Shown here in pieces: positions 1,397 to 56,624 of a DNA stretch of 64,000 bases (the first letter of the stretch is position 1; every line of letters begins with the position of its first letter). Position numbers and translations under genes: made by a program. This stretch comes from an uncultured delta proteobacterium (lineage in GTDB: Bacteria > Desulfobacterota > Syntrophia > Syntrophales > CAMTWB01). Below the pieces are notes generated by a model. It did not search any database. It was not told the DNA's origin and saw only the letters and a list, made by a program, of their open reading frames with translations. The stretch covers positions 44,261-108,260 of the forward strand of contig CAMTWB010000007.1 of assembly GCA_947085375.1 (NCBI GenBank), given 5' to 3'.

Positions 1397-1457
1397 GGCT
1401 TCATAATCCGTAAATGCTTTTGGTGTTTAGGCCGAAGGCCCCTGTCTCTGCCTTTTC

Positions 1458-1518: not shown

Positions 1519-1528
1519 AGCCAAGCCG

Positions 1529-1584
1529 CCTTTAGCCTTTAGCCTTCAGCCTTCAGCCTTCAGCCTTTAGCCTTCAGCCTTTAG
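1529..1584. repeat. Tandem heptanucleotide repeat (CCTTYAG)x8; on the coding strand (CTRAAGG)x8
   Basis: Eight perfect-length 7-nt units counted directly. The array abuts the stop codon (1586-1588) of the DsrK-like gene, in the spacer before dsrM. Confidence 0.95.
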
Positions 1585-1585
1585 C

Positions 1586-2923: not shown

Positions 2924-2942
2924 TCATATCTCCCTAATTTGA

Positions 2943-3662: not shown

Positions 3663-3764
3663 TTGCATGCCTCCTGTTAATAACAATGAACAATAATCAA
3701 TGAACAATGATAATTGACCGTTGATCATTGTTCATTGAAAACACGCTTCCTTGCTCTCGCCGCG

Positions 3765-5554: not shown

Positions 5555-5806
5555 TCAGGAACACGTACCCCCGTCTTTCGGATAATGCTCCGCCAAAATC
5601 AGGTACGTCGAACTGCCGCTAGACCAGTAGCGGATGATTTCCTCTTCCAGCAGTTCTTTTACCGCGGTTTGGATGGCATTGCGGTCGTCACCTGGAAGCC
5701 AGCGAACAACATCCCGGATGTAGTACATCTTCTTGTCGCCGCCGGACTTCTGCCTGAATGCTTGCAGTACCCTCGCCTTTAAGTCTTCGCTCATGGTCAA
5801 CTCCAC
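5555..5806 (-). CDS. dsrD: DsrD
   Basis: Small ORF after dsrB containing YWSSGSSTY, the DsrD hallmark block. The start may be the internal ATG at 5794 (MSEDLK...). Confidence 0.85.
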
Positions 5807-6858
5807 TTGAAGAGTGCGGACGAGCGGAAGGTTTCTGTCGCCAGATCAAAGTCATCGATGTGCTTGTCCGTAAAGGGAATCCCCGTTAAAGTGAAAAATC
5901 TCTCCCAACCGACTCGCTCGATCCACTCACCGACGCGCTCATGCTTTCGGGCATTGCTGGCATATATTTCGATGATCTTTTTGACGGCATTGACTACCTC
6001 CGGCCAGCGCGGCGGGTTGTTTGGCAGGAAGGGGATGGCCAGCTTGGAAAAGGCGGGAGCACTGCGGGCGTTCGACACCTTTCCCCCAACCCAGATCGAG
6101 ATGCCGTCGTTATCGGGATCGGCAATGGGCAGGGCGGGGCAGACCGTGTAGCAGTTGCCGCAGTACATGCACTTATCTTCGATCAGGGTGACGGTCTTTT
6201 TGTTCAAGTCACCCCGGATCGCCCCAGTGGGGCAGGAAGCCACGGTGGAGGGAATTTCACAAACATTGGGCACCCTGGTGTTATCCACCTTGGGCACTGT
6301 ACGATGGATTCCCAAAATGGCAATGTCCGAGCAGTGCACAGCGCCGCACATGTTGAGACAGCAGGCGAGCGCAATCCGCACGTGTGCCGGGAGCGTCATG
6401 CTCTCGAAGTAATCGTAAATTTCATCCATCAGCGCCTTGACCGGGCCTGAACCGTCCGTGGCCGGGGTATGACAGTGGATCCAGCCCTGAGTATGAATAA
6501 TGTTGGATATGGAGCGTCCCGTTCCTCCGACGGGGTAGTTTCGGCTCTTCAATTCCGCAATCAGCGGCTCTACCTTATCCGCACCGGTCGGGAAAAACTC
6601 AATGTTATGGCGGCTGGTGAAGCGCAGATAGCCGTCGCAGTACTTTTCGGCAATATCACAGATTTCCCGGATATGCTCCGTGGACAACAGACGCGCCGAG
6701 CCGGCACGGACCGTGTACATCTTTTCTCCCGATTCCGAAGTATGAACCAAAACTCCCGGGCGGGGAATTTCATGGTAACGCCATTTACCATAATTATTGC
6801 TGATCACGGGTGGCAGCATTCCCTTATAATCAGGGGGACCGATATCAGTTTTTGCCAT
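5797..6858 (-). CDS. dsrB: Dissimilatory sulfite reductase beta subunit
   Basis: 353 aa with sirohaem/4Fe-4S Cys clusters and a ferredoxin insert ([12 protein letters not shown]). It is adjacent to dsrA with a 1-nt gap. Confidence 0.9.
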
Positions 6859-6859
6859 C

Positions 6860-8053
6860 TTACTTATCCTCCTTCTTGATAATATCTTCCGGCCAGAAAA
6901 AGACGTACGGATTCGCCCGGGGCGCCTTTACCATCTGCGGTACCGCAGGAAGCCCGACCGCGCGCAGGAATTGCCTCATCCCCAGACGCTTGATCAGCTC
7001 ACCCAGCCTTTCCCGTGACTTGCCGTGCTCATCCCACCAGTCTAAAACCTTCAACAGAAGATCTTTCACCTCGTCATAGGGCGGCTCCAGCTTCATAAAT
7101 GGCACGATAACCCAGGACAGGAGAGCCCCTTCCAAAATCGGCGCTTTCCCTCCCACCAGGATGGTGGCGCCCCCCTCCTCGCCCGGCCGGAGCGCTTTGG
7201 ACATCAGGTTAATACAGTGCATACACCGGGTGCAGTCTTCGTTGTAGATTTTCAATTTTTTCCCGTCCCATTCCATGCACCTGGTAGGACAGAGGTCACA
7301 AACTTCTTTCTGAATGTTCAGGCCGGATTCCGCATAGGCCGCTACTTCCGCCTGATCGATGCGGATGTCCCCCTTCCATGTTCCGATTATGGAAAAATCA
7401 GACCGAGCAATGGAGGCAACGCAGTCATTGGCGCAGGCCGAAACCTTAAGCTTGAACTTGTACGGGAACATGGGGCGGTGAATCTTGTCCTGAAAAGACA
7501 TGGTGATGTTGTAGCAGATATCCAGACTGTCGATACAGGCCCACTCACAGCGCGCCGGCCCTACGCAAGCGCTGGGCGTTCTCAGCGCCGACCCGGAACC
7601 GCCCAGGTCAAATCCCGCCTCGGTAAGGTCGTCAAAGCAGGGTTGAATATGTTCGGTGTTAGTGCCAAGTAAGATGATGTCACCCGTCGAGCCGTGCATA
7701 TTGGTCAGACCGCTGCCATGCTTATCCCAAACATCGCAAAGGCGACGCAGGGTATCTGTTTTGTAAAACCAGCCCGTGGGATGGTTCACCCTCATGGTGT
7801 GGAAAGCCTGCACATTCGGGAAGAGTTCCGGGCGATCCGAGTAGCGCCCGATTACTCCGGCGCCGTAACCCTTGACGCCGACAATCCCGCCGTGCTTCCA
7901 ATGCCCTATCTTTTCCTTATAGGAAAGTTCCAACTGATTGAGAAGATCCGCCGCCATAGGTTTCTTCTCGGCCGCTTGCTTCATATCCTTAACGAAGCTT
8001 GGCCACCTACCCTCTTCCAGCTGATCCAGAAGAGGTGTTTTCGAGTCCGCCAT
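6860..8053 (-). CDS. dsrA: Dissimilatory sulfite reductase alpha subunit
   Basis: 397 aa with a conserved DsrA N-terminus ([27 protein letters not shown]) and Cys clusters ([23 protein letters not shown]). Confidence 0.9.
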
Positions 8054-8330: not shown

Positions 8331-9176
8331 TTAGTTGCGGGTAAATTTTCCAAGCAAACCCCTAGGCGAGGTGATTAATCTATTGATGCCCAATCTTATA
8401 TGGTCAACCCCCAGCGCCAGACCTAGCAACTGGGTGATATAAAGGACTGGAATCCTTATTTTCTCCCCCAGTTCCCGTTCAATCGCGTTTTGTTTGCCGT
8501 CCAGCATGAAATGGCACAGGGGGCACGCAACCACCAGGCAATCGGGCGCATACCGCCTGGCTACCTTCAATATCCTTCCGGCCAATTTAAGCGCCACTTT
8601 TTCTTTGGTGAGTAAGAGCCCGCCGCCGCAACAATCGACCTTATCGGGAAAGGAGAGGGGTTTCGCCCCCGTTAAGGCGATCAACTTCTCCATTATTTGG
8701 GGGTTCTCCCGGCTCTCCGTCCCGCCCGGAGGAAAGGGCCGCACGGTCAGACAACCGTAGTAGGGAAGGACCTTGATTCCCGCGAGGGAACAAACCAGGC
8801 GCCGTTTAATTTCTTCCGGCCCCAGGTCGAAGCCCAAGACATCCAGTAACTGCTTGACGTCGGGAAACCGGGAGGGAGAGGCCTTGGCTGTCTCGTCTTT
8901 CCGCAGCCGGTCAAGCGCCTGCTGGTGATTGAGGTAACAATTCGGACAGAGCGTCAGGAGTTCCCGGTTTGCCTTGGCCGCCTGCTCAAGGGTTTTTAAG
9001 GGCAGGCGCTCTGCCAGCTCTTTACTCAAGGATTTGGCCACCGTCGCGCCGCAACAGCCCCAATCGCCCGGTTCTTCGATTTCAATCCCGAGGTCAGGGG
9101 CAATCGCTTTAAAAGACTCTTCAAAATCACGGGCGGTTCCCTTCAGGGAGCATCCCGGATAATAGAGGTATTTCAT
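8331..9176 (-). CDS. HdrB-like heterodisulfide reductase subunit (two CCG domains)
   Basis: The start is trimmed to MKYLYYPGCSLKG (ATG at 9176), which overlaps the hdrC-like stop as ATGA. CCG-type Cys motifs are present (GCCGATV, VDCCGGG). Confidence 0.75.
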   Translation of the reverse strand: MKYLYYPGCSLKGTARDFEESFKAIAPDLGIEIEEPGDWGCCGATVAKSLSKELAERLPLKTLEQAAKANRELLTLCPNCYLNHQQALDRLRKDETAKASPSRFPDVKQLLDVLGFDLGPEEIKRRLVCSLAGIKVLPYYGCLTVRPFPPGGTESRENPQIMEKLIALTGAKPLSFPDKVDCCGGGLLLTKEKVALKLAGRILKVARRYAPDCLVVACPLCHFMLDGKQNAIERELGEKIRIPVLYITQLLGLALGVDHIRLGINRLITSPRGLLGKFTRN

Positions 9177-9589
9177 CGGATTTTCCCCCGTCGCCACAGT
9201 TGCAAAAAAAGCAGGGCCTGACCCAGAGGACGGCGGGGAAACCGGCATAGCGCCGATTTAAATCCGAGCCGCCACTCGCTGACCCGACCGCTCTTTTCGA
9301 TCATTTGCCTAAATATCCGGTAAAACGCCGGCGCTCTGACCTCCCCCAGCTCCTGGCCCTCTCGTCGCAATGCCAGCATGATCTCCAAAACCGGCAGCCC
9401 CCGGGGACATCTGGTGGAACAGGCCTGGCAGGTCGCGCAAAACCACAACAAAGGGCTCCGGCGGGCCTCTCCCCGTTGGTCAAGCTGGAGCAGCCGGATG
9501 ATTTGCCTTGGCGACTGACCTGACTCGAAGGCCACGGGACATCCCGCCGAGCAGCGGCCGCATTGAACACATGCTGATATCCTTTCCAT
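9173..9589 (-). CDS. HdrC-like 4Fe-4S ferredoxin subunit
   Basis: 138 aa with CVQCGRCSAGCP and CATCQACSTRCP motifs. It appears translationally coupled to the hdrB-like gene. Confidence 0.7.
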   Translation of the reverse strand: MERISACVQCGRCSAGCPVAFESGQSPRQIIRLLQLDQRGEARRSPLLWFCATCQACSTRCPRGLPVLEIMLALRREGQELGEVRAPAFYRIFRQMIEKSGRVSEWRLGFKSALCRFPRRPLGQALLFLQLWRRGKIR

Positions 9590-9593
9590 CGGC

Positions 9594-11951
9594 TCAAGCC
9601 CTAAATGGGTTCGGACCCATTTCCTTCAGCTCTTTGAGGTATGAATGGATCAGTTCGACATAGGCCCGGGAATCACGGATTTCCAGGTTCGTAAGCCGGA
9701 CCCGCCGGGGGTCCATGATCATGCTCTGCAATTTTGCCTTCAGATCATCCCCTCGGGTTTTGATCAGTTGATTGCCCTTGATATAATGGCACTGGCCGTC
9801 TCTACAGCCGGCGATAAGGACGCCGTCGCTGCCGAAGGCCAGCGCATCGGCAATCAGCGCATTATTCACGGCCCCGATGCAGGGAACGGTAATATGAAAA
9901 ACGTTTAAGGGAATCGACAGACCCAATTCCGCCGCCCGGCGCACCGCCGGGTAGGCGTCGTTGGCGCAGAGAAAGGCCAGGAGCACGGGTTCTTCCCGGG
10001 CCAGAAAAGAGGGCTTGACGGCCCTTACCTGGGCGGCTAGTTGTTCGATGGTGCTGTGCCGCCGGGATACGGCCAAAAGCGGACAGGTTCCCATACAGCC
10101 GCCACATTGCCGACATCTGCCCAAATCCACCTGAGAGAACCCTTCGGCATCGAAAAGGAAGCTGCCAAAGGGGCATTCCTCCATGCAGCGTTTGCACTTG
10201 TCGCATTTGGACAAGTTGAGGACCGGAACGGTCGGTGTGACTTCGATGGTCTCCTGGAGGAAGGGCAGGACATCCAGGGCCGCCTGCTGGGCCGTTTCGA
10301 TCGCACGATCAATTCCCATCGGGCCGCGGCTCGTCCCCCCTACCCGGATCCCCGTCCGCTGACTTTCCTCCGAATGGCAGGGAAGGTGGGATTCGAAGAA
10401 ACCCTCGGCATTTCGGGGGAGTTTCAAAACATCGGCGATCTCACTGGTCCCCTCCGACGGGATCAATCCGCCGGCCAGAACCAGAAGATCAACGGACAAA
10501 TCGAGCTCTTTTCCGCTGAAGGTGTCTTCCACGCGCAGTGCCAGCCGGCCATCCTGCCGCGGCCTTACCACCGCCGGATTCGCCCGGATAAAGAGCACCC
10601 CTTCCAAAGCCTTGACCCGTTGGTACAGCTCTTCACCCAAGCCAGGCGTCCTTATATCCTGATAGAAGATATAACAGCGCACCGCGGGGTTTTTCTCTTT
10701 CAGCGCCAGGACCTGCTTGAGCGTCACGGAACAACAGACGGCGGAGCAGTAATCGAGGTGTCGCTCATCCCGACTCCCAGCGCATTGGATAAAGCCGACC
10801 TCACGGATTTCCCCCGGCAAGGCATCCTGTTGTTCCATCTCCAGGTTGCTGATTACATTTGGATAACGGCCGTAGCCATACTCCTCTACCTTAGCCAGCG
10901 CGTAGGGATCCCAACCGGTGGTCACCAGCATTGCCCCAACCCGAAAAGTGAGCTCTGTGGGCGGTTGATCCAGCAGCACGGCGGCGCTGGGGCAGGCCTT
11001 TTCGCACTTTCGGCAATGGGGCGGGCATAAAGGGCGTGCGATTACATAGGCGGTGGGAAAATTAAGCGGCCAGGGTGGGCTAATGGCGCACTTCCGGAAG
11101 GTTGACTCGCAAACTGTCTCCGGGGCGTGCTGACATCCGTACGGACCTGAGGTCTCTTCCGGAAGGACCACCGGACAGACCTTCCGGCATTCCCCGCAGG
11201 CGTTGCACCGCTCTTCATCCACATAACGGGGGGCCTTTAAGACCCGAACGAAAAAGTTGCCCGGTCCGCCCTCGACCGCCACCACCCGGGAAAGGGTATG
11301 AATTTCTACCGATTTGGTCTTTCGTATCTTTTGGATGATGAAATCTAGTCCGCAATGGGGGTCACAGATCCGCGGATAGAGCCGCCCAAGCTCTGCCACC
11401 TTCCCGCCCACCGCACTTTGCTGTTCGATGAGATAGACCTTTTTTTTGGCCTGAGCCAAGGCCGCGACGGCGTGCAGACCGGCGGTCCCGCCACCTACGA
11501 CGAGGACTGCATCTGTTCCCGGCAGGCAAAGCGGCTCGAGCGGTTCCAGGAGCCGGGTACGCGCCAGGGACATCTGAATCAGGATCATGGCCTTCTGGGT
11601 CTGAAGCTCACGGAGGTCTTTCTCATGATAAATTCCCTGTTCCCGCAGATCGCACCACTCCTGCAGGTAAGGATTGAGTCCTGCGGCAGCCAGATCCGAT
11701 TCCCAGTTTCTCCTCTGTTCCGGGGAGAATCTTCCCACCCAGAGGATGCGGTTGAACATTCCCTGCTGGTACTTCGCAATGATGTCTTCCCGATTTTTCC
11801 CGGCCCCTCCCCCCGGCAATACCTCGCAGCAGGAGACATTTTTGGCGCGTGAAAACCTGGGAACAAGGGCCGCAAGATCAACGGACTGTGAGAGCTCATC
11901 TCCTTCATTTGCGAAAAATATCGCGATTTTAGGAGTAACTTTCAAGCTCAA
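9594..11951 (-). CDS. HdrA/QmoB-like FAD- and FeS-flavoprotein with a C-terminal MvhD-like domain
   Basis: Contains GxGxxG (VVGGGTAGL) and four 4Fe-4S motifs (CNACGECRKVCP, CRKCEKACP, CDKCKRCMEECP, CRQCGGCMGTCP). The C-terminal block resembles MvhD/FlpD. The start is uncertain: the ORF-track ATG at 12017 overlaps the aprB-like gene by 70 nt. I favour TTG at 11951 or 11945, which overlaps the aprB-like stop. Confidence 0.7.
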   Translation of the reverse strand: MSLKVTPKIAIFFANEGDELSQSVDLAALVPRFSRAKNVSCCEVLPGGGAGKNREDIIAKYQQGMFNRILWVGRFSPEQRRNWESDLAAAGLNPYLQEWCDLREQGIYHEKDLRELQTQKAMILIQMSLARTRLLEPLEPLCLPGTDAVLVVGGGTAGLHAVAALAQAKKKVYLIEQQSAVGGKVAELGRLYPRICDPHCGLDFIIQKIRKTKSVEIHTLSRVVAVEGGPGNFFVRVLKAPRYVDEERCNACGECRKVCPVVLPEETSGPYGCQHAPETVCESTFRKCAISPPWPLNFPTAYVIARPLCPPHCRKCEKACPSAAVLLDQPPTELTFRVGAMLVTTGWDPYALAKVEEYGYGRYPNVISNLEMEQQDALPGEIREVGFIQCAGSRDERHLDYCSAVCCSVTLKQVLALKEKNPAVRCYIFYQDIRTPGLGEELYQRVKALEGVLFIRANPAVVRPRQDGRLALRVEDTFSGKELDLSVDLLVLAGGLIPSEGTSEIADVLKLPRNAEGFFESHLPCHSEESQRTGIRVGGTSRGPMGIDRAIETAQQAALDVLPFLQETIEVTPTVPVLNLSKCDKCKRCMEECPFGSFLFDAEGFSQVDLGRCRQCGGCMGTCPLLAVSRRHSTIEQLAAQVRAVKPSFLAREEPVLLAFLCANDAYPAVRRAAELGLSIPLNVFHITVPCIGAVNNALIADALAFGSDGVLIAGCRDGQCHYIKGNQLIKTRGDDLKAKLQSMIMDPRRVRLTNLEIRDSRAYVELIHSYLKELKEMGPNPFRA

Positions 11952-12274
11952 TCGAGGCTTCCCCGGTTGATATAATGAAACCGCTCCACCTTGCCGTTCA
12001 GGTCGATTAGCGTCCAAGTTATGCTGTTAGTCCCCATCAGGGGGATCAGTTTCGCCTGATGATAGCCGATCTGATAGGGAACCCTGGTCTCCAGCGCCCC
12101 CTTGGGGCAGATCTTGACACAGGACATGCAGTCCCAGCAGTCCCGGGGCATCCGGCAGCGGGCCTTTTTATCCTCGCCCAGCGTGAAAAGATCGCCCGGG
12201 CAGATCTGTTCACAGAGGGGTTCGTTTTCCGCCTTGCAACCATCACATTTTTCACGATCCACTTTGGGTGGCAT
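11948..12274 (-). CDS. AprB-like 2x[4Fe-4S] ferredoxin subunit (short form)
   Basis: 108 aa. The motifs KCDGCKA...CEQICPGDL and DCWDCMSCVKICPKGA follow the AprB pattern. It appears to lack the extended C-terminal tail of canonical AprB. Confidence 0.65.
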   Translation of the reverse strand: MPPKVDREKCDGCKAENEPLCEQICPGDLFTLGEDKKARCRMPRDCWDCMSCVKICPKGALETRVPYQIGYHQAKLIPLMGTNSITWTLIDLNGKVERFHYINRGSLD

Positions 12275-12299
12275 CTCTGTCCTCCTTATTTAAATCAGC

Positions 12300-14057
12300 T
12301 TACCCCTTCGTCCGATCCCCAGCAACAAGCTGTTCGTAGGACCGGGTAAATACCTTCACCTCGCCGGACAGGGGATCCCGGCGGCTTTCGATAAAACAAT
12401 CAAGATCAGGGTTGACCTCGGGATAGTCCATCCTCGTCTGCCAGCCCTCCCAGCGGGTTTCCTTGCGGTAGATCAGATGGTGCAGCAGGACCTCGGCCAC
12501 GCTCAGGCGGTCGATAACCTCATGAACATTCAGTAGATCATGGAGGTCTGAGGCAAAAAGGTATCTAGTCTGGTCTTGAAGCACCTTGACCTGTTTTAAG
12601 GCGTGCTCTAGGCGTTCCTCGTTCATCCGGTAAAACTGACTTACGCCCCCGGCATACTCGTCCATGAGCCGCTGCAGCCGCTCCTCCATCTCCACTGCGG
12701 TAACCCCGTCAAAAGCGCCTCCTCGCAGTAGCGGGGCAAAGACCCGCTCCTTTTCCCGGTCGATCTGGTCGGCAGGTGGCGCCGGTAAGGAGACGCCCAT
12801 CAAATATTCCAAGGCGCCCCGCGCGGCAATCCGGCCTTCCGTAGCGCATCCGCCGACAAACTTGTTGGGACTGCCGCCGGCGGCCTCGCCGGCGGCGAAA
12901 AGGCCGGGGATGGTACTCATTCTTTTAATATCGACCCAGTAGCCGCTGCCGGTGTGTCCCCCGACAATGTAGGGATCACTGCCGAATATTTCCACCGGCT
13001 CCTTGGTGATGTCGATCCCGTTGCTGGCCAGAAACAACACAAATGATGGGCGTTCGTTGAGGAGATCTTCCCGCAGTTCTTTCGACTCCTCCGAGCTCAA
13101 CCTTGTTGTATCAACATAGGTAGGGGCACGACCCTCGAGCCATTCCGTCATCGGGGCGTTGAGGCGCAAAAACCGCGGCGCCTTTTCCCCTCCAAGGTGG
13201 GCGTAACGATCGGCCATGATCTTCTCCCCCCTGCCGTTGATCATCAGGCAGCCATATCCTACGGCGAGGGTATCGACCGGTCCGCAGAAGTCCTTCGTCC
13301 GAATGGCCACCCATCTTTGTTCCAGCGAGGTCATCTCCGCGCCCGCCCGTATCCCAATGGCGTACCCACTGCCTACATTGAAGGGGCACATCCAGGTCTG
13401 ATGGTGCGAGCCCGTATAATCGGTCACCGGAGAGCGGTAGATGCCGCAGGCTCCGCCGGTGGCGACAATGGTGGCTTTCGCTTGAAATACGTATAATTTT
13501 CCGTCCCGCACCCCAAGACCAAAAGCCCCGACGCAGCGGTCACCAGCCATTAAGAGATTCGTCGCCGCGACGCGATTGTAAACCTGGGCGCCGGCCTCCA
13601 TCGCCTTTTCGGCCATAATCGGTTTGAGCTGCTCCCCCTGGATCGAGATGTCCCAGCGCCCCCGGAGCTTGTAGTACCCCTCGTCATCGCGGACAATGGG
13701 CAGCCCCCACTCCTCGAGCATTTCCACCGACTCGTTTAAGAGCTCCGCATTGCTCAGCACCAGGTCTTCCCGGATCGGGCCTCCGCCTAGTTGTGCGCGT
13801 CCCCAGCGAACTAGGCTTTCTGGTGTCTCACCCCGATCTTCCCGGATATAGGTGTTAATGGCGTCCATGCCAGCGGCGGTCGCGCCGCTGCGACTGATCT
13901 GCGCCTTTTCCATAATGGTTACCTTCAGGGCGGGGTTTTGGGTTTTGGCCTCGTAAGCGGCAAAGCAACCCGCATTTCCGCCGCCGATAATCAGCAGGTC
14001 GGTTTCGATGATCTCGGTCTTAATATCGTTGAGCGTTGTAATACCCTTGTTCTCCAT
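12300..14057 (-). CDS. AprA-like FAD flavoprotein (divergent adenylylsulfate-reductase alpha-type subunit)
   Basis: The start is trimmed to the ATG at 14057 (MENKGI...), behind GAAGGAG. It has an FAD fold (LLIIGGGNAGC) and Apr-like blocks: RSGATAAGMDAINTY, EEWGLPI, ATGGACGIY, GAEMTSLEQRW, KETRWEGWQTRMDYPE. Confidence 0.7.
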   Translation of the reverse strand: MENKGITTLNDIKTEIIETDLLIIGGGNAGCFAAYEAKTQNPALKVTIMEKAQISRSGATAAGMDAINTYIREDRGETPESLVRWGRAQLGGGPIREDLVLSNAELLNESVEMLEEWGLPIVRDDEGYYKLRGRWDISIQGEQLKPIMAEKAMEAGAQVYNRVAATNLLMAGDRCVGAFGLGVRDGKLYVFQAKATIVATGGACGIYRSPVTDYTGSHHQTWMCPFNVGSGYAIGIRAGAEMTSLEQRWVAIRTKDFCGPVDTLAVGYGCLMINGRGEKIMADRYAHLGGEKAPRFLRLNAPMTEWLEGRAPTYVDTTRLSSEESKELREDLLNERPSFVLFLASNGIDITKEPVEIFGSDPYIVGGHTGSGYWVDIKRMSTIPGLFAAGEAAGGSPNKFVGGCATEGRIAARGALEYLMGVSLPAPPADQIDREKERVFAPLLRGGAFDGVTAVEMEERLQRLMDEYAGGVSQFYRMNEERLEHALKQVKVLQDQTRYLFASDLHDLLNVHEVIDRLSVAEVLLHHLIYRKETRWEGWQTRMDYPEVNPDLDCFIESRRDPLSGEVKVFTRSYEQLVAGDRTKG

Positions 14058-14168
14058 GCTAGGCTCCTTCTTTTTGGTGAGAATTTTAATATCTGTGCGG
14101 GGCAAATGGTATCAGCCAGGCGATAGAGTGTAAAAAAGATCGTGATTTGCGCGCTCGGCCCGCCGCCG

Positions 14169-15659
14169 TCAGGTCTTTTTCATCGTCCCCAAGGTGGTCT
14201 TGACGATCACATAACCGGTAATGGCCATCAAGAGCATGGCCACGGGACGGGTGAGGAACATATAGGAGTTATGCTGCGAGGCGATGATCACCTGCTGGAG
14301 CGATGTTTCCCACATCGGGGCCAGAATGAAACCGATGATGAAGCAGATGTGGTTGAAATCGAACTTCTTCATGAAGTAGGCGACAAAGGCGAAAAACAGC
14401 ATCGTGCTGACTTCAAATACGGACATGCCGGCCAGATAAGAGCCGACGAGGCAGGTTAGGATAACGATCGGAAAAAGGATCGCGGGGGGTGTCTGCACGA
14501 CCCTGCAAAACATCTTCAAACCGGCGACCCCAGTAATGAGGAGAAAGATATTGGCCACAATCAGACTGCCGTAGATCGAGTAGATGAACTGCGCGTTCTT
14601 TTCAAACATCAACGGTCCCGGGATCATGCCGTGGATCACAAACGCGCCGATGAGGAGCGCCGCGGCAACGTTCCCCGGAATCCCCAGCGTGAACAGCGGG
14701 ATGAGGCTGCCGCCGACGACTGCGCTGTTGGCCGATTCGGAGGCGGCGATACCCTCAATCCTGCCTTTTCCAAACTCTTCCGGATGTTTGGACCTTTTCT
14801 TCTCCTGGTCGTAGGCAAAAAACGAGGCAACCGGGGCGCCGAGGCCGGGCAGCGCGCCGACTACGGTGCCGAAAATTGAGGAACGAAAAAGCGTCTTTAG
14901 GCAACCGCGGTACTCGGCCCAGGAAACACGGTTGTCCTCCGGTTTGGCGGAAAACGAGATGGTGCCGCCGCTGGCGCCCATCCGGATATGGCGTTCCAGT
15001 TGGATGATGATTTCAGAAAAGGCCAGCATCCCAATCCCGATCGGGATAAGAGAGAAGCCCTTTTCCAACTGATAGATTCCGAAGGTCAGCCGAGGCAGCG
15101 CCGATACGGAGTCCATGCCCACGGAACCGACCAGTATGCCAAAGGCGGCAGCGACGAGACCCCGGGCGAGCGACTTGCTTCCCACGCCAGCAATGATCGT
15201 CATTGCGACACAAATCAGCGCAAATATCTCCGGCGGCCCCATGTAGAGTGCGACCGCCGCCAGCGGCGCCGCCACCATAATCAGCACCAGCGTTGAAAAG
15301 GCATCCCCTGAGACCGAGGCGTAGAGCGCCATCAGCAGCGCTTTTTTCCCCTTGCTCTGTCTGGCCAAGGGAAATCCGTCCCAGGTGGTCGCGGCGGCTT
15401 CAGGTGTGCCCGGCGTGTTCATCAGAATGCCGGAGATGGACCCCCCGAAAAAGGCGCCCTTGTTGAGGCCAACCAGAAAACTGATGGCTGACACCGGAGA
15501 CATATAATAGGATAGGGGAATGCAAAGTGCGATGGCCATCGGACCGTTGATACCGGGAATGGCCCCTGCAATTGTACCCAAGATGACGCCCAGCAACACG
15601 AACAACAGGTTGAGAGGGTGGAGCGAATCGGTAAGCCCGGCGATGATGATCTCTAGCAT
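14169..15659 (-). CDS. tctA: Tripartite tricarboxylate transporter large permease
   Basis: About 496-aa polytopic membrane protein. The start is trimmed to MLEIIIAGL (ATG at 15659), which avoids overlap with tctB. Confidence 0.85.
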   Translation of the reverse strand: MLEIIIAGLTDSLHPLNLLFVLLGVILGTIAGAIPGINGPMAIALCIPLSYYMSPVSAISFLVGLNKGAFFGGSISGILMNTPGTPEAAATTWDGFPLARQSKGKKALLMALYASVSGDAFSTLVLIMVAAPLAAVALYMGPPEIFALICVAMTIIAGVGSKSLARGLVAAAFGILVGSVGMDSVSALPRLTFGIYQLEKGFSLIPIGIGMLAFSEIIIQLERHIRMGASGGTISFSAKPEDNRVSWAEYRGCLKTLFRSSIFGTVVGALPGLGAPVASFFAYDQEKKRSKHPEEFGKGRIEGIAASESANSAVVGGSLIPLFTLGIPGNVAAALLIGAFVIHGMIPGPLMFEKNAQFIYSIYGSLIVANIFLLITGVAGLKMFCRVVQTPPAILFPIVILTCLVGSYLAGMSVFEVSTMLFFAFVAYFMKKFDFNHICFIIGFILAPMWETSLQQVIIASQHNSYMFLTRPVAMLLMAITGYVIVKTTLGTMKKT

Positions 15660-15687
15660 AAGTTGCTCCCGTCGTTGATACACCGGC

Positions 15688-16167
15688 TCATGGCATCGGA
15701 ACCCCAAGCCCGTAACGCATGACCGCATACAATATGAACACGGAAGCGACGGCGGTGACCACCGCCGCAACCGGTTTTCGCTGCCCGCAGAGGTATTGAA
15801 TAAGCAGCATGAAGACCAGCCCCGCCGGGATGAACCCCAGCCAATTCATCGCGGGCATCAAGAGGGCGCTTGGGAACATGAAGCGGGCAAGATGCCATAA
15901 ATGTACCCGGTCTTCCCGATATCCGTCGCTGGACGGTCTCTGTTCGTCAATTTTGGCTACCTCCACCCGACCGGACCAGAGATTGCGCCCCAGCGACAAA
16001 AGAGAGAGCACCAGCATGATGCCCACGGTTACACTGGGCACCAGCGCCGCCGATACTCCATACCCCGGATAGGGGGGCGAGTAGGCGGGGATAACCCACA
16101 ATAAAAAAATCAGACTGAATAACGCGATGCCGCCATAGATGATATTTTCTCTCTGCCTGCTCGTCAT
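15688..16167 (-). CDS. tctB: Tripartite tricarboxylate transporter small membrane subunit
   Basis: 159 aa with four hydrophobic segments, located between the tctC-like and tctA genes. Confidence 0.7.
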   Translation of the reverse strand: MTSRQRENIIYGGIALFSLIFLLWVIPAYSPPYPGYGVSAALVPSVTVGIMLVLSLLSLGRNLWSGRVEVAKIDEQRPSSDGYREDRVHLWHLARFMFPSALLMPAMNWLGFIPAGLVFMLLIQYLCGQRKPVAAVVTAVASVFILYAVMRYGLGVPMP

Positions 16168-16192
16168 AATGCTGTTTCCTGCGGGTTTTTAT

Positions 16193-17161
16193 TCACTTCT
16201 TCGTTTCCGCCGCTTCCTGTCGGAAACGCTCGTTGGCCTGCCTCATATAAGACCTGGCGTGATCCCGGCCGAAGGGCTGAGGCCCCATTTTTAGATCCGC
16301 CGTGATGAACTTACGAAACCTGTCATCCTTGGCCAAAATAGCCATCGTCCTTTCCAGCCGCGCCATCACCGCTTCAGGCAACCCCCTTGGCGCTGCCAGC
16401 ACCAGATACATCTCCACAGATTCGTCCCATCCCTGTTCCCGCAAGGTCGGCACATCGGTCAGTTGCGTCAGCCGCTCAGGGGTGGAGGCCGCCAACAACT
16501 TCAGGCGGCCGGATTGGACATACTCAAACAAGATGGCCCCTACATGGCCGATGTCGGCATGACCGCCCATCACGGCTGCGATTACCGAAGGGCCGCCGGT
16601 GCTCGGCATAAGCGCGATATTTACCCCTTCGCTCGCGGCGATGCGCTTGAGCGCGTCCCGGTCGTCGGAGCCCTGAAACATGTAGGTCAGCCCCTTTTTT
16701 TCCTTTTTCGCCCAAGCAAAGGCATCTTTCAAGGTCTTCCAGGGACGGTCAGGAGCACAGATAACCCCGCTTTGGTTGAGTCCCAACATGGATATGAAGT
16801 CAAAATCATCAAATTTGTAGGTTGTTTTCACAAAATGTGGCGAATAGGTAAAGGCCGCCGTTACCGATACCCCCAGGGTGTAGCCATCGGGCTTGGCGGC
16901 ACTTAGTTCCGCCGCCATCACGCTGCCGTGCGATCCGCCTGGGCTATTGGTCACCAGTACCGGTTGTCCCAACTGGTCACTCATCGCCTTTGCCAGCGCG
17001 CGCGTCAGCAAATCAATCTGGGCGCCCGGACCGGTCATCGTAAGCATCTTAATCGGCCGATTCGGGTATTCCGCCGCCAGCGCCGGAGGGGAAACGCACA
17101 CAACGGCAAAAACTCGCCAAATAGGCGCCTTCTTCGCAGGGACGAGTTCCGACTCGTCCAC
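16193..17161 (-). CDS. tctC: TTT periplasmic substrate-binding protein (Bug/TctC family)
   Basis: The Bug-family-like body runs from ...AAEYPNRPIKMLTMTGPGAQ. The ORF-track start at 17473 reads through a repeat element and the ilv leader region. I favour GTG at 17161, which gives a KK-hydrophobic-ALAAE signal peptide. ATG at 17206 is an alternative. Confidence 0.75.
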   Translation of the reverse strand: MDESELVPAKKAPIWRVFAVVCVSPPALAAEYPNRPIKMLTMTGPGAQIDLLTRALAKAMSDQLGQPVLVTNSPGGSHGSVMAAELSAAKPDGYTLGVSVTAAFTYSPHFVKTTYKFDDFDFISMLGLNQSGVICAPDRPWKTLKDAFAWAKKEKKGLTYMFQGSDDRDALKRIAASEGVNIALMPSTGGPSVIAAVMGGHADIGHVGAILFEYVQSGRLKLLAASTPERLTQLTDVPTLREQGWDESVEMYLVLAAPRGLPEAVMARLERTMAILAKDDRFRKFITADLKMGPQPFGRDHARSYMRQANERFRQEAAETKK

Positions 17162-17189
17162 CCCTATGCATAGGCCTTGCCGAAAGGCA

Positions 17190-17262
17190 TAGCATTTTAC
17201 TGCCATGACGAAGCATGGCCCTCCGAAAAACCCCTCTGAATATGTTTCGGAGTCAAGTGGGA
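17190..17262. repeat. Short structured repeat (TTTACnGCCATGACGrAGCATGGCCCTCCGAAAA ... TTTCGGAG); second copy at 29205-29300
   Basis: A core of about 35 nt is shared with 29205-29245. Both copies contain the CCATG-N6-CATGG and CTCCGAAA...TTTCGGAG inverted repeats. Confidence 0.7.
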
Positions 17263-17371
17263 CATAAGCATCCGGAGTTTTAACCGCTTGATCAAAATTG
17301 TCTGCTGCAAAAAAACCTTGACAGCGGGGAATCAAGTTGCTAGGTGTCGAATCAACGTGGAGATTTACCAG

Positions 17372-17455
17372 ATGCTTATGAACCGTGCTTTTGTAAAATA
17401 CATCGCCATAATTATTCTTGGGATAATTATACCCTTGCGCGGAGGGTACTGGTGA
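17372..17455 (+). CDS. Candidate ilv leader peptide (27 aa, MLMNRAFVKYIAIIILGIIIPLRGGYW)
   Basis: GGAG lies 9 nt upstream of the ATG. The peptide has 7 Ile, 3 Leu and 1 Val, with 9 Ile/Leu in an 11-residue stretch. It ends 25 nt before a terminator hairpin and lies upstream of ilvB. Confidence 0.5.
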   Translation: MLMNRAFVKYIAIIILGIIIPLRGGYW

Positions 17456-17479
17456 TGGTTTAGGCTTACACACAATCCT

Positions 17480-17518
17480 AAAAAAAACCGTTGCCAGGGT
17501 CGGCAGCGGTTTTTTTTT
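17480..17518 (+). terminator. Intrinsic terminator/attenuator hairpin (A8-ACCGTTGCC-loop-GGCAGCGGT-T9)
   Basis: 9-bp stem including one G-U pair, followed by a T9 run. It sits 31 nt upstream of the ilvB ATG. Confidence 0.6.
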
Positions 17519-17548
17519 GGCGTAAGTGCTACGAGTTGGGAGGGAGAT

Positions 17549-19276
17549 ATGAAGTTAACAGGGGCGCAGATATTTTTTCAAGCATTGAAGATGGAAGGGG
17601 TGGATACGATTTTCGGCTATCCCGGTGGCGCAGTGATGGACCTTTATGATGAAATGTACCGTCAGGACATCAGGCATATCCTGGTCCGCCACGAACAGGG
17701 AGGAGTCCACGCCGCCGACGGCTATGCCCGCAGTACCGGCAGGGTGGGAGTATCTCTCGTTACCTCCGGCCCCGGGGCGACCAATGCCGTAACCGGTATT
17801 GCGACAGCATTTCTCGATTCGGTTCCACTGGTGGTTTTCACCGGACAGGTGCCGACCAGATTCATCGGCAATGATTCTTTCCAGGAGGTGGATATCACCG
17901 GGATAACCCGTTCCTGCACTAAACATAACTTTTTGGTGAGGGACGTGAGACAACTGCCGCAGACTATTCGCCAGGCTTTTAATATTGCTCGCAGCGGACG
18001 TCCCGGTCCGGTCCTGGTGGACCTGCCAAAAGATGTAATCCAGTCGGTGGTGGAAAGGGCGGATATCGATTTTCCGTCTGATGTTCAAGAGGAGTTGCCA
18101 TCACGGAAATACCTGGAGATGCGCTGTCGGGAGGCGCTGGATCTACTGCTTAAGGCCGAAAAACCGCTTATCCTGTGCGGCGGCGGCATTTTGCGCGGCA
18201 AGGCCTCGGAGGAATTCCGAAAGCTTGTGACCCGATTAAATATACCGGTTACCAGCACTCTCATGGGCATCGGTTCCTTTCCCGGTCATTCTCCCCTCTG
18301 GCTGGGAATGGTGGGAATGCACGGCACTTACTACGCCAACATGGCCGTCAGCCATTGCGATCTCCTGTTTGCCGTGGGGGCCCGTTTTGATGACCGGGTT
18401 ACCTCCAAAGTGGAAGCCTTTGCCCCCCATGCCAAGATAATTCACGTAGACATTGATCCCCTGTCTCTGGAAAAGGTTGTTCGCACCCACGTTGCCATTC
18501 AAAGTGACTGTAAACCGGTTTTGCAACTGCTAAACGATATGCTGGACGAGGCCTTGCCTAAGCGCCAGGGTGATCAATATTCATCCTATTCACCCTATTC
18601 ACATTGGCGGGAGGAGATCGCCCGCTGGAAGAAAAAGGTCCCTCTTAGCTATTGTCGCAACGAAAACATCAAGCCCCAGTATGTGATCCAAAAACTGAAT
18701 AAAATTACCAATGGCCAGGCAATCATCACCACTGACGTGGGACAGCACCAGATGTGGGCGGCCCAGTTTTATAATTTTGACTATCCTGATACCTTCCTTA
18801 CCTCTGGAGGACTGGGCACTATGGGCTACGGACTGCCCGCGGCCATTGGCGCCCAGGTTGCTCATCCGGAGCGTCTGGTGGTCAACATTGCCGGTGACGG
18901 CAGCATTCAGATGAATATCCAGGAACTTGCCACCGCCGTTGAATATGACTTGCCGGTCAAGGTAATTATTTTGAATAACGGCTACCTGGGGATGGTGCGT
19001 CAGTGGCAGGAAATGTATTACGGAAAACGCTACTCTCAATCGGGAATCAGCGGCTGCCCGGATTTTGTCAAACTGGCCGCAGCCTACGGGGCGCTGGGGC
19101 TCCGTACCGACAGGCCCGACCTGGTGGAAGAAATCCTCCGGCAGGGCATTGCTCATCCGGGGGTGGCTGTTATGGATTTCCGTATCGAACCATTGGAGGG
19201 AGTATATCCGATGGTCAAGCCCGGGGCCCCCTTGACGGAAATGCTTCTGGGACAACAGACAGCGGCAATAATGTAA
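17549..19276 (+). CDS. ilvB: Acetolactate synthase large subunit (ThDP/FAD)
   Basis: 575 aa with conserved blocks GYPGGAVMDLYD, TSGPGATN and GLGTMGYGLPAAIGA. Confidence 0.92.
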   Translation: MKLTGAQIFFQALKMEGVDTIFGYPGGAVMDLYDEMYRQDIRHILVRHEQGGVHAADGYARSTGRVGVSLVTSGPGATNAVTGIATAFLDSVPLVVFTGQVPTRFIGNDSFQEVDITGITRSCTKHNFLVRDVRQLPQTIRQAFNIARSGRPGPVLVDLPKDVIQSVVERADIDFPSDVQEELPSRKYLEMRCREALDLLLKAEKPLILCGGGILRGKASEEFRKLVTRLNIPVTSTLMGIGSFPGHSPLWLGMVGMHGTYYANMAVSHCDLLFAVGARFDDRVTSKVEAFAPHAKIIHVDIDPLSLEKVVRTHVAIQSDCKPVLQLLNDMLDEALPKRQGDQYSSYSPYSHWREEIARWKKKVPLSYCRNENIKPQYVIQKLNKITNGQAIITTDVGQHQMWAAQFYNFDYPDTFLTSGGLGTMGYGLPAAIGAQVAHPERLVVNIAGDGSIQMNIQELATAVEYDLPVKVIILNNGYLGMVRQWQEMYYGKRYSQSGISGCPDFVKLAAAYGALGLRTDRPDLVEEILRQGIAHPGVAVMDFRIEPLEGVYPMVKPGAPLTEMLLGQQTAAIM

Positions 19277-21600: not shown

Positions 21601-22677
21601 ATGTTTAGCTTGAAAGACATTTTTCCCAAGCGCAGTCAGGTTATAGGAATCGATGTCGGGTCGAGTTCGTTGAAGCTCTTGGACATCAAGGACTCTCCCC
21701 GCGGCCCAGAGCTGATCAAGTTTGGCCAGATAGCCATGCCCCGGGGGGCGATTGTGAATGGCGAGCTCCTGGAGCCGGGGGTCCTTTCCGACAGGCTGGT
21801 AGAGCTCGTTTCCTCCTGCGGTTGTAAGCGAAGACCGGTCGTTTCCTGCCTTTCGGGAAACTCGGTGCTGGTAAAAAAGGTCAATTTCAACCAGATGGGC
21901 GAGGAAGAACTACGCGAACTCCTCCAGGATGAGGGCGCCAAGTATCTCCCCTTTGAAGACATATCTCATGTGTACCTCGATTTCCAGGTTCTAAAGGGTT
22001 CTGATGTAAATCCCAACCAAATGGAAGTTCTGATCGTAGCGGCAAAGAAAGACGTCGTTGACAGCTATACGCAGGCCTTCCTCAAGGCAGGCTTGGAGGT
22101 GGTCATCATGGATGTCGACTCCTACGCCATTGAGACCATGTATGAAGAAAATTATGATTTCGATGACGACGAGGTAGTTGCTCTGATCGATATCGGCGCC
22201 AGCGCCACTAATATAAATGTGCTCAAGGGCGGCATTTCCATCTTCACCCGGTCCTTTTCCCTGGGGGGCAACATCATTACCGAAGCCATTGGGCGCGAGC
22301 TGGGGGTGGCCTTCGATGAAGCGGAGCTGATAAAGATAACGGGGGTTTCCGGCGAAACTGCGGAGAGAGAGAAGTTGCGCGAAAAAATAATCATTGAGGC
22401 CGAATCAATCATCCAGGAAATTGAGAGCTCTCTTGATTACCTCAAGTTCCAGGCCCGGGAATTTGTCAAGCAGATTGTGCTGTCCGGCGGTAGCGCAACT
22501 ATTGCCGATTTCGATCGTGTTATTGCCGATAGACTTAACATGGCGGCAAGTATCGTCGATCCCTTCAGGAAAATTCATGTCGATCCCCAAAAAATTTCGC
22601 CGACGATCATTGCCGCCGCAGCGCCTTTCGCGGCAGTTGGAGTGGGCCTGGCCTTAAGAAGATTGGGGGACAGATGA
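21601..22677 (+). CDS. pilM: Type IV pilus assembly ATPase-like protein PilM
   Basis: 358 aa with an actin-like fold pattern (IGIDVGSSSLK..., IDIGASATN). It is the first gene of the pilMNOPQ string. Confidence 0.85.
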   Translation: MFSLKDIFPKRSQVIGIDVGSSSLKLLDIKDSPRGPELIKFGQIAMPRGAIVNGELLEPGVLSDRLVELVSSCGCKRRPVVSCLSGNSVLVKKVNFNQMGEEELRELLQDEGAKYLPFEDISHVYLDFQVLKGSDVNPNQMEVLIVAAKKDVVDSYTQAFLKAGLEVVIMDVDSYAIETMYEENYDFDDDEVVALIDIGASATNINVLKGGISIFTRSFSLGGNIITEAIGRELGVAFDEAELIKITGVSGETAEREKLREKIIIEAESIIQEIESSLDYLKFQAREFVKQIVLSGGSATIADFDRVIADRLNMAASIVDPFRKIHVDPQKISPTIIAAAAPFAAVGVGLALRRLGDR

Positions 22678-23261
22678 TCCGGATTAATCTACTTCCCTAC
22701 TGGGAGAAGGGGAAAAAAGAGGACATCAGACGTCAGGTGTTTTTCCTGGCAGCTTCGTTTGTTTTGTTTATCCTTGTCCTGTCTTCTTTTTATATTTACA
22801 TCAGTTGGAGTAACTCTAGATTGGAAGCCCAGGTCAAAACGATGGAGCTAAGGACCGCAATGTTGGCCAAGGAGGTAGGGGATGTTGAGGCTAACCTGAA
22901 GAAAAAAAGACAATTTGAGCAGAAACTTGCGGTCATTGAAGAATTGGATAATAATCGCCTTTTTGCGCTCCGGCTTTTCCGGGAAATGAGCTTCTTCACG
23001 CCGATAGGCAACGTCTGGCTGAACAAAGTTGCTCAAAAGGGCACCGAAGTGCGGCTGGACGGCTATGCCAGGCATAACATGGCCGTGGCGCAATTCATGA
23101 AAAATGTGGAGAAATCGGGCTTCCTTACCGATGTTGATTTGGTTGTTTCCAAACGGGAGGAGGTGGAGAAAAGCATGGTGCAGCGTTTCGTGGTGACCGG
23201 TCGGCTTTTCGGAAATCAGCCGGGGACTTCGCTTAAAGAGGGGCCAGCGGGCCGAAACTGA
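22674..23261 (+). CDS. pilN: PilN
   Basis: 195 aa starting MIRINLLPY, with one TM helix. It overlaps the pilM stop by 4 nt. Confidence 0.8.
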   Translation: MIRINLLPYWEKGKKEDIRRQVFFLAASFVLFILVLSSFYIYISWSNSRLEAQVKTMELRTAMLAKEVGDVEANLKKKRQFEQKLAVIEELDNNRLFALRLFREMSFFTPIGNVWLNKVAQKGTEVRLDGYARHNMAVAQFMKNVEKSGFLTDVDLVVSKREEVEKSMVQRFVVTGRLFGNQPGTSLKEGPAGRN

Positions 23262-23263
23262 TT

Positions 23264-28150: not shown

Positions 28151-28199
28151 GGGCGAATAATCATTCGCCCCTACGGCTGGATTCAAGGAGACAGGCGTC

Positions 28200-56623: not shown

Positions 56624-56624
56624 C

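Follow-up and report, generated by a model that had tools for sequence, protein, structure and literature searches.

What would an enzyme resembling adenosine 5'-phosphosulfate (APS) reductase be doing between a tripartite tricarboxylate transporter (TTT) and a heterodisulfide reductase (Hdr)-like electron module, and on what substrate would it act? The question is raised by a 64,000-nt stretch of an uncultured Syntrophales genome (contig CAMTWB010000007.1, positions 44,261 to 108,260; hereafter "the window", to whose whole length the coordinates refer), in which eight co-directional minus-strand genes, tctC-tctB-tctA-aprA'-aprB'-hdrA-hdrC-hdrB, form a cassette at 8331-17203. The answer preferred here, with a probability of roughly 0.45, is that the cassette encodes an importer-fed, Hdr-wired AprAB-like reductase, which would release sulfite for the sulfite reductase DsrAB from an imported sulfo-anion that is not a nucleotide. 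The AprAB-like paralogue family is already known; the cassette, with its importer, regulator and swappable electron modules, appears to be new. A preliminary description of the locus had recognized no characterized system of this composition, which overlooked the known paralogue family and its 3'-phosphoadenosine 5'-phosphosulfate (PAPS) reductase relative, but stands for the cassette itself: no published description of an Apr-like, Hdr and importer combination was found in the literature searched, which yielded only the definition of the paralogues, the PAPS reductase paper and remarks on Bilophila and Taurinivorans.

Relatives of AprA' number 3,489 at E<=1e-20, and the best 120 are all at least 68% identical to it. 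Gene neighborhoods were compared at 84 loci in all, with three relatives and 80 loci from species-representative genomes mapped by tblastn. Conserved over these loci is a unit made up of an importer directly upstream, aprA', aprB', an optional electron module and a gene for a 229-aa CRP/FNR-type regulator; outside this cassette almost no gene recurs. The importer differs in type, being a DASS carrier at about 45 loci (often with a PhnD/SsuA-like protein), TctCBA at about 20 (often with the ModA/Sbp-like SBP_bac_11) and a TauE/SafE permease at about nine, and the loci with no detected importer are mostly truncated upstream of aprA'. Neither the Sat motifs (GRDHAG, QxRNPxHxxH) nor the APS-kinase P-loop motif occurs in the 1.4 Mb around the 84 cassettes. 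Profile and motif searches likewise found no sat, cysC, qmoA, qmoC or canonical aprBA in the 64-kb window, which extends to the whole stretch the absence of sat, qmoA and a membrane-anchored qmoC first remarked on for the cluster.

The carriers come nearly all from Dsr-type sulfur-respiring lineages. They include metagenome-assembled genomes (MAGs) of Syntrophales/Syntrophobacterales (the nearest 89% identical), members of Desulfarculales, Desulfobaccales, Desulfobacterales, Desulfocapsaceae and Desulfurivibrio, as well as Thermodesulfovibrio and other Nitrospirota and one Acidobacteriota MAG; among Desulfovibrionales isolates they include Bilophila wadsworthia, Solidesulfovibrio magneticus, S. 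aerotolerans, several Nitratidesulfovibrio and Fundidesulfovibrio. Another recurrent feature is the presence of Sulfotransfer_3 sulfotransferase genes beside the cassette, seen independently in four or more lineages (loci L003, at its positions 17228-18367, L016, L019 and L037), which by our own estimate exceeds what chance would be expected to give for so rare a family.

To judge from its sequence, AprA' is a non-canonical AprAB-like reductase subunit of a distinct clade. It passes the NCBIfam equivalog model NF005331 (cut-off 557) and fails the classical aprA model TIGR02061 (392 bits, cut-off 641.75). In a PDB sequence search, its best solved match is 8a8o_A, the alpha subunit of the Methanothermococcus thermolithotrophicus PAPS reductase (E=7e-147), followed by the APS reductases of Archaeoglobus (1jnr, E=1e-106) and Desulfovibrio (2e-66), with Sdh and Frd proteins far weaker. 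A Foldseek search with an AlphaFold model of moderate quality (pLDDT 74, pTM 0.77, low pLDDT around the active site) puts 8a8o at rank 1 (TM-score 0.80/0.84), then the APS reductases, then Sdh/Frd. With A. fulgidus AprA it shares 40% identity, and with the 8a8o PAPS reductase 46-49%. In a neighbor-joining tree of 93 sequences (100 bootstraps; representatives of clusters at 50% identity, drawn from an exhaustive HMMER search, plus eight members of the window's clade, with the Methanothermococcus and Archaeoglobus sequences rebuilt from alignments), there is one Apr superclade (100% bootstrap), and the window's clade (100%, or 95% with its nearest outlier) is separate from that of canonical AprA (100%). 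The window's clade and the PAPS reductase are joined at 14%, the PAPS-reductase group itself having 56%, and the branching order of the three clades is not resolved.

Proteins of this general kind were set apart by Neukirchen and Sousa in 2021 (DiSCo) as AprAB-like paralogues, in which the AprB-like protein has no tail and the AprA-like protein shows gaps in its capping and helical domains. Their survey counted 63 organisms with such proteins, Deltaproteobacteria and Nitrospira among them; an assimilatory role was proposed from neighboring sat, cysC, asr and sulfate transporter genes (PMC8477390). Jespersen and Wagner showed in 2023 that an archaeal member is a PAPS reductase, with structure 8a8o and an electron donor that is not known (PMC10322725). 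The window's enzyme is like these proteins in its short alpha subunit (~570-590 aa), tail-less beta subunit of ~105 aa, alpha-then-beta gene order, catalytic residues and Arg141. It differs from the 8a8o type in belonging to a well-supported clade of its own and in having no sat, cysC, PAP-phosphatase, asr or fsr neighbors; in their place the clade has a dedicated importer, a CRP/FNR regulator and, in many cases, an Hdr module, and its hosts are Dsr-type respirers, not assimilators. Simple membership of AprA' in the PAPS-reductase type is not established.

The substrate pocket sets the clade apart from both characterized types. A census of 120 clade members covered the positions that contact APS in A. 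fulgidus: N74, Y95, E141, Q145, W234, R265, V273, G274, L278, R317 and H398. Six of the 11 contacts are kept, namely the catalytic residues N74, W234, R265 and H398, the adenine-stacking R317, and V273; the other five are changed (Y95W, E141R, Q145D, G274D, L278V). N74, W234, R265, K267, R317 and H398 are invariant in all 120 members, as are the replacements W95, R141, D145 and D274, and L278V is found in 118. At positions 95, 141, 145 and 274, APS reductase has Y/E/Q/G and PAPS reductase Y/R/S/G, whereas the clade has W/R/D/D, so that W95, D145 and D274 are peculiar to it. The basic loop for the 3'-phosphate of PAPS (R118, K120, R121 and S122 in Methanothermococcus) is not conserved, with only Arg141 invariant: position 143 varies (R/G/K/A), 144 is aromatic, and 145, where the 3'-phosphate would sit, is Asp in 120/120. 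One possibility raised by these invariant charges is that D274-R317 and D145-R141 form salt bridges that would plug the adenosine pocket and replace contacts to adenine and ribose.

Canonical AprA was a candidate for the flavoprotein, and is ruled out by the model scores, the tree and the pocket residues. The suggestion in the preliminary description that this is not the housekeeping APS reductase is therefore sustained, with AprA' outside the canonical clade, both subunits below the classical models (TIGR02061, TIGR02060), a tail-less AprB and an altered APS pocket; nesting within canonical AprA with all APS residues conserved, named beforehand as the outcome that would speak against it, is seen neither in the tree nor in the census.

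AprB' fails the AprB model TIGR02060 (cut-off 135.65) and matches A. fulgidus AprB (1jnr_B, 150 residues) over residues 1-105 only, so that the C-terminal tail that wraps AprA is missing; it keeps the electron-transfer tryptophan of CW(D/E)C. By E-value, canonical AprB (4e-26) matches it better than does the beta subunit of PAPS reductase (2e-16). Its identity to homologues is 67-96% in Hdr-linked cassettes and 50-71% in Hdr-less ones, at similar AprA' divergence, a difference that would fit docking of AprB' on HdrA, although common descent of the Hdr-linked loci may play a part.

The electron module itself is interchangeable across cassettes. At the 80 loci with judgeable downstream content, hdrA follows aprB' in 37, and five arrangements after aprB' can be distinguished: no module at all (Desulfovibrionales and some others); hdrA-hdrC-hdrB, as in the window; hdrA, a 580-aa membrane protein with a NarI-like and a QmoC/HdrC-like part, and hdrB; hdrA-hdrC with an iron-sulfur and FAD/NAD(P)H pair resembling AsrA/AsrB or sulfhydrogenase beta/gamma subunits (Desulfocapsaceae); and hdrA-hdrC-hdrB with a NuoF-like NADH module two genes on (two Nitrospirota loci). 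This recurrence, together with the coupled gene junctions in the window, agrees with the earlier assignment of the Hdr genes to the Apr-like pair.

The alignment of the window's HdrA with methanogen HdrA is full-length (8rvu residues 12-652) and is followed, at query residues 654-785, by one with MvhD; there is an FlpD (MvhD) domain at residues 680-801 of the hdrA open reading frame (ORF). It holds the inserted and C-terminal ferredoxin domains and the CxGSRD cluster motif, and thus resembles the full-length HdrA of methanogen HdrABC-MvhAGD and of Methanosarcina HdrA2B2C2, MvhD being fused as in HdrA2; HdrC with its two clusters, and HdrB, in which both C..CC..CxxC (CCG) motifs are complete in the translation, are as in HdrABC. 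All three score far below the NCBIfam equivalog cut-offs. The window differs from the methanogen systems in having an Apr-type enzyme as partner and no Mvh hydrogenase, formate dehydrogenase or F420 module within its 64 kb. Where methanogen HdrA has its N-terminal CxCG cysteine motif, the window's protein reads ANEG, and one iron-sulfur cluster of classical HdrA may for that reason be absent.

By analogy, the arrangement would work like the aprBA-qmoAB-hdrCB arrangement of Gram-positive sulfate reducers, but with one HdrA. Common to the window and the canonical AprBA-QmoABC or QmoAB-HdrCB systems are an FAD subunit, a subunit with two [4Fe-4S] clusters and the catalytic Asn, Trp, Arg and His, and in both the product presumably feeds DsrAB; shared too is an MvhD-bearing HdrA-like protein (like QmoB), with hdrC and hdrB directly downstream. 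The differences are that AprA' is some 60-75 residues shorter than canonical AprA, AprB' lacks the tail, the gene order is reversed (A-B), a single hdrA stands between aprB' and hdrC in place of two genes (QmoA plus QmoB), and sat is not at the locus. In many sulfate reducers the clade's enzyme coexists with the canonical system.

On the importer side, TctC, TctB and TctA all exceed the Pfam gathering scores. TctC orthologues in cassettes across phyla are 61-85% identical to that of the window (65% in Bilophila, 71% in Nitrospirota), as conserved as AprA', and TctA is 68-82% identical to cassette TctA elsewhere. Because TctC is as conserved as AprA' and is kept in the same cassette, the TTT system can be counted as belonging to the functional unit, however its genes are transcribed; the tie between transporter and enzyme proposed earlier is thereby strengthened, and DASS or TauE carriers occupy the same position elsewhere. 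At E<=1e-30, 430 database proteins match the window's TctC; the three close relatives checked comprise a member of an AprA' cassette, a protein encoded next to fragments of an aprA'-type gene, and a protein on a contig too short for a judgment. PDB searches for ligand clues with TctC and with a cassette DASS carrier gave distant matches only and were uninformative. TTT systems do import sulfoacetate and sulfolactate in Desulfovibrionaceae (PMC10413351, PMC10507020). These importers, SauXYZ for sulfoacetate and SlcHFG for sulfolactate, belong to the same transporter family, occur in the same type of host and supply sulfite-yielding, Dsr-feeding pathways; their partners are a CoA ligase, dehydrogenases and a glycyl-radical lyase, or SuyAB, whereas the partner in the window is an Apr-like reductase.

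In many TTT cassettes, tctA is followed by a gene for a protein of ~300 aa with the ModA/Sbp-type oxyanion-binding fold (SBP_bac_11; L033 4553-5461, L087 11296-12222, L088 6345-7256 and others), the L033 copy of which has no obvious N-terminal signal peptide by eye. DASS cassettes have a PhnD/SsuA-like binding protein instead, and the window has neither. At one contig start (L088), short FAD_binding_2 fragments lie on the opposite strand (1314-1819) beside an intact CRP-tctCBA-SBP_bac_11 set, and may be a decayed aprA'.

The gene assignments on which these comparisons rest (Table 1) are confirmed throughout the cassette by Pfam and NCBIfam profile models. As these are protein-coding genes with strong family matches, a chance origin of the cassette is not an issue. 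The tctA-aprA' gap is 111 nt and the aprA'-aprB' gap 25 nt, the latter containing an AAGGAGG ribosome-binding site. From there on the genes are packed: the TTG start of hdrA overlaps the aprB' stop (TTGA, 4 nt), hdrA and hdrC are 4 nt apart, and the ATG of hdrB overlaps the hdrC stop (ATGA, 4 nt), so that by these junction overlaps the Hdr genes are translationally coupled to aprB'. The likelier start of tctC is a GTG at 17158, and the tctA open frame reaches 15770, with Met38 the likely start. In its inventory the preliminary description was accurate: the eight co-directional genes, the flavoprotein of ~585 aa with its 108-aa ferredoxin partner in the order A then B, the Apr-type blocks (RSGA..INTY, EEWGLP, ATGGA, GAEMT, ETRWEGW), all present in the AprA' translation, and the 277 nt between the end of the cassette and dsrA are all as stated. 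Its range of 9594-17161 omits hdrC and hdrB, which its text names, and its upper end lies near the likely GTG start of tctC.

How might these parts work together? In the preferred reading, the TTT importer would take in an anionic sulfo-compound (X-SO3-), from which the cytoplasmic AprA'B' would reductively remove the sulfo group via an FAD-N5-sulfite adduct, by the same chemistry as APS and PAPS reductases, and the sulfite set free would be respired by the adjoining DsrAB/DsrC. Electrons would reach AprA' via AprB', itself fed by HdrA(MvhD)-HdrC-HdrB as a soluble counterpart of Qmo; at its HdrB end this complex may act on a thiol/disulfide couple, for which DsrC or a thiol of low molecular weight is plausible, and bifurcation or confurcation of electrons could take place at the HdrA flavin. 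We infer the reductive direction, sulfite as the product, and the electron path. Candidate substrates are thiosulfate or another thiosulfonate, a short sulfo-carboxylate, or a sulfate ester. A non-nucleotide sulfo-anion is favored because sat and cysC are never linked to the cassette, Sat-less hosts keep it, and the adenosine subsite has invariant new charges. Bilophila and Taurinivorans have AprAB homologues without Sat and Qmo (preprint 10.1101/2024.10.14.618174; PMC10507020), and the Sat-less Bilophila not only keeps but expresses its AprAB homologue genes (preprint 10.1101/2024.10.14.618174). Thiosulfate, trithionate, S-sulfo-thiols and aryl sulfates would be feasible for FAD-N5 attack, having a leaving group comparable to AMP. 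A more specific proposal, put forward quite tentatively, is an ATP-independent respiratory route from imported sulfo-anion to sulfite without Sat or APS, in the Hdr-linked versions of which AprB' would be one arm of a bifurcating HdrA coupled to the DsrC couple.

Several points weigh against release of sulfite from a non-nucleotide. Both characterized relatives act on adenine nucleotides, and APS stays plausible as a substrate because the clade keeps the adenine-stacking R317 and V273. Carbon-bound sulfonates are less feasible substrates, C-SO3 giving a poor leaving group and the family offering no precedent. DASS and TauE/TSUP proteins are candidate sulfate carriers (PMC5840216), and the PhnD-like and ModA/Sbp-like binding proteins of some cassettes suit inorganic oxyanions. 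In Taurinivorans, the AprAB protein was undetected on taurine, sulfolactate and thiosulfate (PMC10507020). Within the window, the cassette's CRP/FNR regulator was not found in the 64 kb, and dsrAB probably has its own promoter, since the hdrB-dsrA gap contains a hairpin and a promoter-like TTGACA-17-TAATAG site.

The candidate sulfate carriers in particular would serve an alternative dissimilatory APS reductase, for which sulfate would be imported, a Sat encoded elsewhere would make APS, and HdrA-HdrCB would replace QmoABC, providing a second, differently regulated entry into sulfate reduction. The identity to A. fulgidus AprA, the retained catalytic residues, R317 and V273, and the closeness of AprB' to the canonical subunit agree with this, and the ribose diol could still be bound if E141R and Q145D amount to a charge swap. 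An aprBA-qmoAB-hdrCB arrangement is also on record (PMC10504309), CRP/FNR-type HcpR sites, with predicted control, precede sat and apsAB in Desulfovibrio (PMC545781), and added APS improved the growth of Bilophila (preprint 10.1101/2024.10.14.618174). It nevertheless seems rather unlikely: sat adjoins none of the 84 cassettes, the Sat-less Bilophila and Taurinivorans keep the cassette, and five of the 11 APS contacts are changed across the clade, four of them invariantly. The enzyme would moreover be redundant with canonical AprBA-Qmo in Solidesulfovibrio, Nitratidesulfovibrio and Fundidesulfovibrio, which are sulfate reducers by established physiology, and TTT systems are not known to carry sulfate. 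A Methanothermococcus-like PAPS reductase, serving assimilation or sulfotransferase-linked recycling of PAPS, is improbable in hosts that make excess sulfide, for which assimilation is unnecessary. 8a8o is the best sequence and structure match, E141 is Arg as in PAPS reductase, sulfotransferases flank the cassette (in L003/4 and the other lineages mentioned above), and AprAB-like proteins have an assimilatory role in the proposal of the DiSCo authors (PMC8477390); the basic loop for the 3'-phosphate shows no conservation, however, with the invariant Asp145 at the place of the phosphate (PMC10322725), APS-kinase and Sat motifs are near no cassette, the only inositol-monophosphatase-family gene in the window is SuhB/HisN-like, not CysQ, and 40 kb away, and the grouping with the PAPS-reductase clade has only 14% bootstrap.

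Very improbable is operation in reverse, from sulfite and AMP to APS with electrons passed via HdrA-HdrCB to DsrC or thiols, as a form of cytoplasmic sulfite disproportionation or detoxification. It would need Sat or some other outlet for APS, absent in Bilophila; the characterized PAPS reductase showed no back reaction (PMC10322725), TTT systems only import, and DsrD marks the Dsr of the window as reductive. On the other side, AprAB is reversible in sulfur oxidizers and disproportionators (PMC10504309), many carriers are in disproportionating lineages (Desulfocapsaceae, Desulfurivibrio, Desulfobulbaceae), TauE has been named as a sulfite carrier, the HdrB-type CCG sites of DsrK are established to act on DsrC-type substrates, and neighbors of the cassette produce or consume sulfite. 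The chances are equally slight for an enzyme outside sulfur metabolism, fumarate-reductase-like and acting on an imported di- or tricarboxylate, thiol-coupled like TfrAB. TTT and DASS systems classically carry carboxylates (the nearest solved DASS relatives being dicarboxylate carriers, weakly similar at E=8e-12), AprA is a member of the Frd/Sdh superfamily, HdrB finds its best NCBIfam match (148 bits, cut-off 500) in SdhE of methylmenaquinol:fumarate reductase, and TfrB is among the weak matches of HdrB and HdrC. Yet AprA' reaches 139 bits with TfrA (cut-off 718) against 589.5 with NF005331, and no more than 310 bits with the Sdh/Frd models (cut-offs 567 or higher), none of which it passes; its sequence identity to APS/PAPS reductases is 40-47%, against 15-20% to Sdh/Frd in Foldseek structural alignments. 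N74 and W234, which are specific to Apr, do not vary in the clade, the ferredoxin partner is of the Apr type and has the conserved tryptophan, and nearly all carriers are Dsr-type sulfur respirers.

Returning to sulfite release from an imported sulfo-anion, what is the place of the dsr genes in it? Downstream of the cassette come dsrA, dsrB, dsrD, a cobyrinate-diamide-synthase-type dsrN, dsrC with both C-terminal cysteines, a NarI-like/DsrK-like pair and a true dsrM. The DsrD-like protein, from an ORF between dsrB and dsrN, marks this as a dsr locus of the reductive type. The true DsrM, at 475 bits, is at the window edge, and the NarI-like and DsrK-like genes that stand before it form a DsrMK-like paralogue pair preceding the real dsrMK(JOP). 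Adjacency of cassette and dsrAB is, however, seen in this window only among the 84 loci, so that its inclusion in the system by the preliminary description was not upheld: in the two closest relatives (L001 and L007), a convergent gene for the isethionate sulfite-lyase IslA (1,346 bits to 5ymr; region 15824-19258 in L001) and its activase stand downstream of hdrB in place of dsrAB, and a CRP/FNR gene stands upstream of tctC. As the nearest relatives differ both downstream and upstream, there appears to have been recent rearrangement on both flanks. dsrAB would then be a neighbor of the cassette, outside the conserved unit, and likely the consumer of the sulfite; that makers or consumers of sulfite adjoin the cassette in the window's lineage fits sulfite as the product.

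Regulatory sequences in the window are less informative. A TTTACA-17-TACCAT site precedes aprA', and a scan for promoters and terminators gave counts at shuffle level, with no discrimination on whether tctCBA or dsrAB is co-transcribed with the core. The CRP/HcpR palindrome TTGTGAN6TCACAA has 21 matches in the window against 21.3 expected, and the one upstream of tctC, with three mismatches, is at chance level.

Table 1. Features of the window discussed in the text, with positions and supporting profile scores.
Feature	Position	Strand	Description	Support
tctC	16193-17203	minus	Periplasmic binding protein, TTT importer	Pfam TctC, 127 bits
tctB	15688-16167	minus	Small membrane subunit, TTT importer	Pfam TctB, 49.6 bits
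tctA	14169-15659	minus	Large membrane subunit, TTT importer	Pfam TctA, 458.7 bits
aprA'	12300-14057	minus	585 aa, FAD subunit of AprAB-like reductase	NF005331, 589.5 bits
aprB'	11948-12274	minus	108 aa, ferredoxin-like, two [4Fe-4S] clusters	TIGR02060, 89.4 bits
hdrA fused to MvhD-like domain	9594-11951	minus	785 aa, HdrA2/QmoB-like flavo-iron-sulfur protein	HdrA2 model, 511 bits; FlpD, 108 bits
hdrC-like	9173-9589	minus	138 aa, two [4Fe-4S] clusters	TIGR03290, 70 bits; QmoC N-terminal part, 46 bits; Fer4_8/17
hdrB-like	8331-9176	minus	281 aa, two CCG domains	Pfam CCG in two stretches; TIGR03288, 127 bits
dsrA	6860-8053	minus		TIGR02064, 574 bits (above cut-off)
dsrB	5797-6858	minus		TIGR02066, 509 bits (above cut-off)
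dsrD	5555-5794/5806	minus	83-aa ORF	Motif YWSSGSSTY
NarI-like/DsrK-like pair	407-3728	minus	261-aa membrane protein and DsrK-like protein, after dsrC; the range also takes in the true DsrM (475 bits)	DsrK-like, 351 bits (cut-off 400)
Co-directional run	21601-34992	plus	PilM-like ATPase, secretin, repeat proteins	
SuhB/HisN-like gene	53381-54244		Inositol-monophosphatase family	
Cytochrome region, first part	55484-57326	plus	Multihaem cytochromes and associated genes (both parts)	
Cytochrome region, second part	58826-63761			

Elsewhere in the window, the SuhB/HisN-like gene, considered as a PAP phosphatase and rejected since it does not score as CysQ, lies inside a polysaccharide gene cluster. 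In the cytochrome region, two genes encode multihaem cytochromes of MtrC/c7-like type (379 and 617 aa), and a third a cytochrome b resembling PhsC, which scores 112 bits with the model for the cytochrome b of thiosulfate reductase; a sensor kinase and a sigma-54 response regulator are encoded there as well. The co-directional run begins with an actin-like ATPase that resembles the type IV pilus protein PilM (by eye only) and includes an unusually long secretin of 1,248 aa, a Sel1-repeat protein and a 1,703-aa surface protein with fn3/Big_1 repeats. There are no tRNA genes and no Rfam families at gathering threshold in the 64 kb.

Genes of this clade are routinely annotated as "adenylyl-sulfate reductase" and counted as evidence of sulfate reduction, although the clade is not that of the canonical enzyme and is present, with its own importer and regulator, in organisms unable to activate sulfate (Bilophila, Taurinivorans). 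Knowledge of the substrate would correct sulfur-cycle annotations in thousands of genomes and metagenomes, and could reveal a new respiratory source of sulfite and H2S in sediments, groundwater and the human gut. Apr-type enzymes on differing modules (none, soluble HdrACB, membrane QmoC-like, NAD(P)H-linked) also form a natural series that bears on an old question, the coupling of APS-type reduction to energy conservation. If an ATP-independent route from sulfo-anions does exist, it would give Dsr organisms, including the gut pathobiont Bilophila, a new source of sulfite for respiration.

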